A stretch of 64,000 bases of DNA from Candidatus Heimdallarchaeum endolithica (GTDB lineage Archaea; Asgardarchaeota; Heimdallarchaeia; Heimdallarchaeales; Heimdallarchaeaceae): positions 3,136,001-3,200,000 of the forward strand of contig CP084167.1 of NCBI GenBank assembly GCA_021513715.1, read 5' to 3'. The notes beneath the pieces were generated by a model. It searched no databases. It had not been told where the DNA came from and was given only the letters and a program-made list of their open reading frames with translations. This document shows positions 28,727 through 31,573 of this stretch, one piece after another (position 1 is the stretch's first letter; the number at the start of each line of letters is the position of its first letter). Both the position numbers and the translations under genes were made by a program.

Positions 28727-31573
28727 TTATGTTTTGAACTTCTTAAGTTTTTTAGCGATAATAGTAATTATTGGCAGAGCGATAAACAAACTCCAGAAGT
28801 TAAATGGTAAATCTAAAGTTTGCTTATCTTGACTAGTTGTTTCGTTAGTGTCTCCAGAACTAGATGATTCAGAAACCGCTTTGATAGATAATTTCATTTC
28901 ATTGCTATTCCCAAAAGTGTCATAAGCAATTATTTTAATTGTGTGCATTCCTTCGTCAGTAATGTAAGTATTAAGGTTAAATGATATAGTGGTGCCATCA
29001 GTATAACTGTCAGTTTTTTCTAAATCACCATCAATGTATAGTTCATAATAATCAGGATTTGCATCATATAGAGTGAATTTCACTGTTTGACTAGTACCTA
29101 TTGTGTATTCAATTATGTGCCAGTAATTCATGTTGCTATCTATTTGAGGAGGATCATAATCATCTTGATAAATTTCATTATAAGCATTAACGTAAATTGT
29201 AACATTATTATTGTTTCCCCATTGATCAAAAGCTTCGATGTAAATTTCATACGTTCCTTCTTCAAAGATATAATTATGTAATTGTAAATGTTGTAGTGCT
29301 TCAGGATACCAGCCATAACCCTCATAGGGAACATCAGAGAGCGTTAGATTTCCATTAATGTAAACATTATAAATATTAGGATATTTATCGACAATGTAGA
29401 AAGAAAGGTCATAATAATCTCCAACTCTGTAATAGTCAACATCATATATATCCCCAAATGCAGGAGGATCTAATTCTGGTTGACTAGGAACCACATTAAT
29501 TGACAATTCACAGTATTCGTTATTTCCATCAGTATCATTAGCAAAGATGGAAAGAGTGTATACTCCTGTTTCGCTAAACAATTCTTTTCCAGTAAAATAA
29601 AACTCGAAGTAATCAGGGTTATAATTTCCTGATGCAATCATTTCATCATTTAGTTTAACTTCATAATAATCTGGGTTTTTCTCATAAAGCCAGAAATCAT
29701 ATCTTTCTGCACTTCCTAATTCATAGTAGGAATTAACATCCCATCCTAAATCTGGTTTTCTTACATCTGTTCCTTCAGGATAGGCTTTTATCCATAGTGC
29801 TTCTTTTCTATAATTGTCAAATTGATCATAACTTATTACAGTAAGGTTGTGTAATCCAACTTCATGAATAAGATCGTTATAGTTGTAGTAATAGTTTCTT
29901 TGTTCAGAATAATTTCCTGTATCGTATAGAGCTCCATCAACGTAAAATTCGTAGTAACTTGGGTTATCATCCCATGTATCAAACCAGAATTCTTCATAAT
30001 CTCCAATAGCCCATTTATATGGTTCTCCAAAATTTTTCTCCTCATACCAGAAACAACTTAAACTAGGGGGGTCTACATCTGTTCCACTAGGATAGATAGT
30101 TACAGGAACAATTTTTGAATAAATAGTGTTAACCGCATCAGTGAATGTAATATTTATAAAAGCAAGAAAATTTACGAATATTCACATAACCAAGTATTCT
30201 TTCCTGATGAAGATAGAGAAAATTTAGCAAGTATAAGTATATACTGCAATATAGAAGAATATAATTACCTTAGAGCATTTAATGTTACGAATGCCAGCAA
30301 AAGTTCAACAAATATTGAAGTTTTTGATGTATCAACAGGTGCTAGTAATTATTCATATTACACTAATAATACCTACTATAATTGGAGAAATAGTGATTGG
30401 AATAAAGACTACTTTTACGAAGATAGTGGAATCAATGATGGTTGGTATTCAGGAAGTGTAGATTATAGGAATTTCAACAACTATTCTAACTTAATTTTTG
30501 ATCCAATGAATTATTTTTCTCAAACTTTGTTACTCTCACAGGAGACTAGAACTTATGAAATAAATGGAGAGGAATTTACTCTTCAAGTAGATGTTTACTA
30601 TTATAAATCTGAAGTTTGGGAAAATTCATGGAATAGTACATGGTATGATGTTGAAACTGAAGTAAATAGTTACAATTATGATGAATATTATTATTATGTT
30701 GATAATAATACTGGAATTTTATTAGAATTCAAACAAATATCTAATAACAAAAATTATATCAGTTTTTATGACTATGTACCAGAATATAATACTTACGTTA
30801 ATTTTACACGGGAAGAAACCACTAATCATAAATATTTTTATACACTAGTTAAAGCTAGCCATTTCTATTCTACTACTGATAATTCTTTTGTTCCATACTT
30901 TACATTTAGGAATTATGATTGGGATCAACCTATCACAAATAGTACAACAGACATTACTTTTCCCTTACAATTCTCAGAAGATGTTGTAAAAATCGAACTA
31001 TATGTAGAAAATTTAATGTATTCACATTGGATTTGGGAGTTAGTCGACACACAGACTATTACAAGTTCTGAGTTGAATTACACTGTTCCAATAGATTATT
31101 TTGAATACCAACCAAACAATAGATGGAAAGATTTCAAAATTATAGTTTATGATGCTAAAGGAAACATGTTTATTCGATTTAGAACAATAAAAGATGACAG
31201 ATATCCTATTCCTGAATGGCAAAGTAGAATAGAAACAAACAAAGTGTATAAAGGAGTAGAAGATAAAGAGTTACAACTAAACCATTTGTATATTTACTCT
31301 GATACTATTTGGAAAGTTGAAACACGATTCTATTACAATCAATGAGATTTAACACAATACATATCAACTTATTCTGAAGGATTTAGTAATAGTACATTAA
31401 GTTTATGGGTTGGCGACAAATGGCCAATTGGGGATTATTCAATAAATGAATGTGTCTCCATTATTTAATTGATAATTGTTTGCATTCACAACTGTTGTTT
31501 CTAAGCTTACAAAAGAGGTGAATGTTGCAATCAAAATTAACGCAATAATCAAACTGTTTTTCTTTATTAACAT
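28727..31573 (-). pseudogene. Paralog B of the Tyr-rich surface protein, disrupted by an internal inversion (30152..31447) and a TGA at 31343-31345
   Basis: Minus 31573-31448 encodes the signal peptide MLIKKNSLIIALILIATF..NGDTF; plus 30152-31447 encodes the middle; minus 30157-28727 encodes the open C-terminal half. Confidence 0.92.
30152..31447. other. Inverted 1296-bp segment bounded by 6-bp inverted cores ATTTAT (30152-57) and ATAAAT (31442-47)
   Basis: Colinearity with paralogs A and C switches strand exactly at these cores. Confidence 0.9.

Follow-up and report, generated by a model that had tools for sequence, protein, structure and literature searches.

How did a surface-protein gene in Candidatus Heimdallarchaeum endolithica come to be split into three pieces on alternating strands, and is it a switch in its off position or a dead gene? 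The gene, which we call gene B, lies in a window of 64,000 nucleotides (contig CP084167.1, positions 3,136,001 to 3,200,000 of the forward strand) in a genome that is a single contig of 3,326,783 bp with 30.8% G+C and tRNA-Gly(CCC) as its last feature. Positions below are those of the window unless we specify the genome. We found that an inversion and a nonsense change inactivated a redundant paralog, and that the inactivation is real and recent.

The initial annotation of this DNA had proposed that the three fragments are one gene with an inverted middle, and each part of this proposal held (Table 1). The 42 N-terminal codons are on the minus strand, the 1296-bp middle is turned onto the plus strand base for base, and the C-terminal half follows on the minus strand. 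The inverted segment is wholly inside one gene. The match between its arms is exactly 6 bp long (ATTTAT/ATAAAT) and extends outward by 0 bp, and no base was lost: the junctions are perfectly reciprocal, without deletion or insertion. Flipping the segment back, in any register from 0 to 6, restores 2847 nt in which codons 440 and 949 are the only stops, and the protein reconstructed in this way can be aligned with paralogs A and C over its full length. Codon 440, the only internal stop, is TGA in place of the TCA that is present in the other copies that we aligned (10 of 10). As the initial annotation also stated, today's gene encodes a stub of 44 amino acids. No further lesion is present in the frame, so both the inversion and the nonsense change are recent.

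Table 1. Features of gene B and its surroundings (window positions)
Feature	Position	Strand	Remark
Paralog A, intact	25640..28510	-	Both hexamer cores at homologous places, unflipped
Gene B C-terminal half, frame intact	28727..30157	-	Ig-like domains, Ser/Thr linker, hydrophobic C-terminal helix
304-aa ORF, fragment of gene B C-terminal half	within 28727..30157	-	
Tract identical to paralog A, 318 bp	29733..30050	-	Probable A-to-B gene conversion
Left junction core ATTTAT	30152..30157		Basis: published assembly alone
Gene B inverted middle, 1296 bp, codons 43-474	30152..31447	+	
279-aa ORF, fragment of inverted middle of gene B	30506-31345	+	
Tract identical to paralog A, 305 bp, within flipped piece	30842..31146	+	Probable A-to-B gene conversion
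Nonsense codon 440, TGA	31343..31345	+	TCA in 10 other copies; in both Logan contigs
TGA closing today's 44-aa stub	31439..31441	-	
Right junction core ATAAAT	31442..31447		Spanned unbroken by Logan contigs from two runs
Block of about 19 kb between head-to-head B and C	31442..50131		Opposite orientation in sister species
Gene B codons 1-42, signal-type hydrophobic N-terminus	31448..31573	-	Original orientation
Paralog C, intact, 948 aa	50654..53500	+	Without either core

It is a fair inference that gene B belongs to a family of membrane-anchored Ig-repeat surface proteins with three members. The protein encoded by paralog C is hydrophobic at both ends and contains a Ser/Thr linker and 20 N-glycosylation sequons; its structure model (pLDDT 75) has a beta-rich N-terminal domain followed by tandem beta-sandwich domains. 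Paralog A has a sub-threshold match to Big_13 in Pfam. Searches of Pfam, Atlas, and PDB folds gave generic Ig/PKD-like matches alone, with TM-scores of 0.10-0.15, and nothing beyond a surface protein.

To ask whether the flipped form occurs outside the published assembly, we used Logan contigs that we reached via the protein of the neighboring gene mobA. Two of these contigs, L024 (SRR15988961; 11,146 bp) and L025 (SRR15988960; 3,216 bp), have 0 mismatches to the window from 31314 on. Both cross the right junction, unbroken and unbranched, in the flipped form, and both carry the TGA. They begin exactly at the first 31-mer that is not common to B and A, so the contig ends are explained by the paralog and not by a second orientation. 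The flipped right junction, together with the TGA, is the assembled, dominant form in two sequencing runs of BioProject PRJNA721962. Both runs probably come from the source study, and possibly from a single DNA sample; rare variants are lost from contigs, and this result speaks for the dominant allele. Because two short-read-type contig sets carry this junction and the TGA, a long-read assembly error is unlikely, and the flip of gene B is real. Exact look-ups of short proteins that might be encoded on a left-junction contig matched nothing, no un-inverted B protein was found among 5.8 billion proteins, and a scan of JGI metagenomes found no relative. A listing of sequencing runs contained five environmental runs, with shares of 0.05-0.34, and no RNA run.

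We then compared the locus with other strains and with the sister species, Candidatus H. aukensis (genome G001; 3.08 Mb). The sister species has three family genes, all intact and colinear, as expected if the flip is a one-off derived change: the ancestral gene was colinear and the flipped B is private to one lineage. Two metagenome-assembled genomes (MAGs) that are about 98% identical to this genome (GCA_054387635.1 and GCA_054387415.1) have common junctions, and we counted them as one lineage. Both have an intact A and a C whose frame stays open up to the end of its contig, while the contigs at both ends lack window 29998-31570. The 3' part of B, from 29997, contains three in-frame stops and is joined to the N-terminus of a repeat gene (1772), and the region upstream of mobA joins other DNA at 31571. 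In a contig from ENA (L027), unrelated genes lie directly upstream of mobA. Gene B is destroyed or absent in these three other assemblies of the species, and sister-type strains have a mobA-adjacent copy with internal deletions (747-750 aa). Judging from these genomes, the gene B slot appears to be dispensable and unstable.

The region has other notable features. A chimeric surface gene, which now has stops, is present in the two MAGs (L015:8192-8932): the repeat gene supplied its signal region (window 1772-2081), B supplied its 3' half, and the in-frame fusion point is an ATG. Window 1772-9131 holds giant tandem-repeat surface genes, with 69/72-bp and 144-bp units and paralogous N-termini, and is a rearrangement point in other strains. 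A CRISPR-like array at 59707-60949 has 19 repeats with 66-68-bp spacing; two adjacent spacers (60374 and 60441) start alike, and one unit is short.

The explanation that we favor, and consider probable, is that gene B is a copy that was recently inactivated and that the flip was a one-off microhomology inversion in a dispensable paralog, which is to say, a generic event. At random breakpoints, homology of at least 6 bp has a probability of about 0.0024, which implies that homology guided the inversion. The site itself is not special: gene B holds 2,043 such 6-bp pairs, and the genome holds 7,945 copies of the hexamer. A single illegitimate event, either a double template switch or end-joining, would have used the 6-bp match to invert the 1296 bp. 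The loss would have been tolerated, with A and C intact and the B slot dispensable, and either the inversion or the nonsense change could have come first. This was one of the readings offered by the initial annotation, and it is the one that survived, with homology beyond chance, a change private to one lineage, an extra TGA, and a slot that was lost elsewhere. As counterpoints, a recombinase would also account for the perfect reciprocity of the junctions and for a core that has AT at each end, and a single nonsense change in one strain is thin evidence of decay.

A possible but rather doubtful alternative is that gene B is a one-off dead gene whose flip was a by-product of the enzyme responsible for mobilizing the resident TnpB elements and 380-bp miniatures derived from them, since a crossover on the self-complementary AT would permit inversion between loosely matching sites. 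The miniatures (such as L032:1881-2262) and the related 1.9-kb elements that encode TnpB/Cas12f (such as L084:311-2163) all have ATG (mostly CATG) at both termini, along with subterminal TTACGTAA repeats; the core is carried by 23 left ends of the miniatures and the related TnpB elements. There was no transposase on the copies that we examined. Two single-copy, stand-alone serine recombinases (L034:1229-2062 and L035:1349-2098; genome 316,731-317,450 and 405,351-406,097; 240-249 aa, 46% identical) are candidates for moving these elements.

Other small inversions in the genome bear on this alternative. A self scan gave 13 strand-switch matches (most of the nine that we set aside look like repeat-array genes), and, together with comparison to G001, it verified three other precise inversions. 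First, a 638-bp inversion with CATG at both ends (L031:2055-2692; genome 487,054-487,691) interrupts a 666-codon reading frame that stays open in G001. Second, a 620-bp inversion (genome 1,600,763-1,601,382) adjoins a 380-bp miniature element (L032:1264-2262 for the whole locus; genome 1,600,763-1,601,761), and about 150 bp were lost there relative to G001. Third, a 550-bp inversion with an AT core and one original CATG site is inside one IS copy (L030:1475-2024; genome 141,974-142,523). Each of the three has at least one CATG site, and the best site of each is at the 98-99th percentile of the target profile. The breaks in gene B in other strains are also at ATG (29997) and CATG (31571-31574), and the core of gene B begins and ends with AT, although this is a weak sign in a genome with 69% A+T. 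However, neither of the original sites in gene B has CATG, and they rank at just the 27th-82nd percentile of all AT sites. The 6-bp match exceeds the 2 bp that such a core needs (about 1% given 2 bp), about 155 kb separate gene B from the nearest element end, and the enzyme is a candidate at most. More broadly, precise small inversions are few, not pervasive: an 800-kb sample of the sister genome, of which 547 kb aligned, had no new clean intragenic inversion, just two unclear cases and the known one in the IS. The two unclear cases (L078:5100-9970 and L070:17283-17737) are orientation switches between the species; one is around a tRNA gene and the other is at the end of a TnpB element.

The initial annotation's other main proposal was an intragenic inverton, in which an invertase acting in trans reversibly flips 30152-31447 and so turns the surface protein on and off. 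Precise reciprocal junctions, a surface protein as the product, and an off state that yields a stub would all fit, but we consider a programmed switch to be very unlikely. Inverton repeats are described as 10-40 nt (PMC11892184), and the tested thiC inverton has 11 bp, as compared to 6 bp in gene B. The sites are not conserved among the paralogs or the sister-species genes. Specifically, the right-hand core is absent from C and from all three sister-species genes, four of the five other family genes in two complete genomes lack the core pair, and paralog A has both cores yet is unflipped in this genome and in the two MAGs. Neither orientation is functional: with the TGA in the assembly and in both contigs, a back-flipped B would still stop at codon 440, ahead of the anchor. 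The contigs of both runs hold the flipped form alone (with the proviso about rare variants given above), and the gene was lost or wrecked in the three other assemblies. The initial annotation had noted that there is no recombinase in the window, and there is none within 150 kb of gene B either. Those found in the genome are one tyrosine recombinase (at genome 29.4 kb) and two serine recombinases (at genome 317 and 406 kb), and the nearest is about 190 kb or more away.

A weaker form of reversibility, in which the AT-core recombinase of the TnpB elements would act in trans to flip the segment at low frequency, and the un-inverted TCA allele would exist in the wild, is similarly improbable. If it were true, then an Asgard archaeon would vary its surface proteins by element-driven intragenic inversion, gene conversion, and 19-kb flipping; a reversible flip of gene B would be the first phase-variation switch in the Asgard archaea, and our search of the literature found none. 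We also considered whether the TGA might be read through as selenocysteine. We rejected this because the codon is serine (TCA) in the 10 other copies and because the inversion blocks expression first; two intron-containing selenocysteine tRNA calls by ARAGORN were not trusted. A sigma-70 scan, with a model that is unsuited to archaea, stayed at the level of shuffled sequence (24 versus 23.9).

Even less credible is the silent-donor idea raised by the initial annotation, here taken to mean that B was retained as a cassette supplying variant sequence to A or C through gene conversion. B does have identical tracts with A (305, 318, 132, and 93 bp) and with C (71 bp), whereas outside the tracts B and A differ at 241 of 826 sites. 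The direction of copying was the wrong one, however. In the two long tracts, the divergence of A from another strain's A is 8/305 and 8/318, against a background of 35/2097, and in the 318-bp tract, B is farther from the remnant of its own positional ortholog (22/265) than from A. These comparisons point to A as the donor, and the most parsimonious reading is that both long tracts were copied from A to B, recently, with B as the recipient. Among the identical tracts, we saw no clear case of copying from B to A, and other strains did not retain the slot.

The least credible reading is an error of assembly or of the library, which was PCR amplified, sequenced by nanopore, assembled with Canu, and polished with Illumina reads to a 3.32-Mb genome that was rotated to end at tRNA-Gly(CCC) (PMC8813620): the left junction is known from the published assembly alone, and this family was the sole unresolved stretch of the sister assembly, with primers from the same paper mapping into it, but the De Bruijn contigs of two runs have the exact right junction and the TGA and largely refute an artifact, a chimera would require two matched switches, and both junctions lie in 31-mers that are unique in the genome, which agrees with the initial annotation's argument against repeat-driven misassembly.

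A larger inversion at this locus is a separate event from the 1296-bp flip. The block of about 19 kb between B and C, which holds xanthine-dehydrogenase and pyrimidine-catabolism genes, is reversed relative to the sister-type sequences L013 and L014, while the flanks are colinear. In G001, the genes that flank the block are identical over 1,324 and 138 bp; in this genome, identical inverted blocks between B and C reach 71 bp at most. The identity in G001 is a possible substrate for ongoing flipping of the block. Alternatively, that identity or the orientation of the block could be partly an effect of assembly, as the gap-closing primers of the genome paper map into the sister-species family gene (PMC8813620). 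A DDE transposase has inserted between xdhC and gene C (window 49043-50026), and two other assemblies of the species lack this insertion.

Overall, a recent one-off microhomology inversion in a dispensable paralog remains our preferred account of gene B. The dead gene explains two orphan open reading frames in a reference Asgard genome and is otherwise minor, but it carries a caution: a precise intragenic flip need not be a switch. Across strains, this surface-protein locus was reshaped by gene conversion, deletion, and a 19-kb inversion, with junctions at CATG cores. Together with several other precise small inversions at such cores in this genome, this suggests that some of the rearrangement in Heimdallarchaeum is due to the recombinase of a mobile element.

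Gene B can be compared with several known systems. Intragenic invertons, as defined by Chanin et al., have both orientations in the reads and repeats that are detectable by einverted, and they include an archaeal case, the adenylosuccinate synthase of Salarchaeum (PMC10028968). As in those, the inversion is inside one gene, is bounded by inverted repeats, and creates an early stop, but gene B has just 6 bp, one observed orientation, and an extra nonsense codon. In Thermococcus, the pTN3 integrase inverts DNA between inverted paralogs and needs at least 104 bp of identity (PMC5495485). The 19-kb inversion between B and C and the gene conversion between paralogs resemble this system; the 1296-bp flip, with 6 bp, does not. 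Serine transposition of the IS607 type has a 2-bp overlap (PMC4058570), and, as in that system, the resident TnpB elements combine a short fixed core with little target specificity, and several of the other inversions here sit on the element core. Unlike IS607-type elements, these have an AT/ATG core with subterminal inverted repeats and no TnpA on the copies examined, and the gene B sites lack CATG. By this analogy, an IS607-like mechanism would be a rival for gene B, not the favorite.

Surface-layer variation by inversion occurs at sap in Campylobacter fetus and at slpA/slpB in Lactobacillus. There, as here, inverted surface-protein paralogs flank an invertible block. In Heimdallarchaeum, however, it is the 3' halves that share identity, and B and C each keep a separate 5' region, so an inversion of the block would not shift one promoter between genes. 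Finally, microhomology-mediated illegitimate inversion and pseudogene formation are known in multigene families. The perfectly reciprocal junctions of gene B, with nothing deleted or inserted, set it apart from such events. What it has in common with them is short A/T-rich homology at both breakpoints of a one-off change, redundant paralogs, an added nonsense change, and loss of the gene in sister strains.
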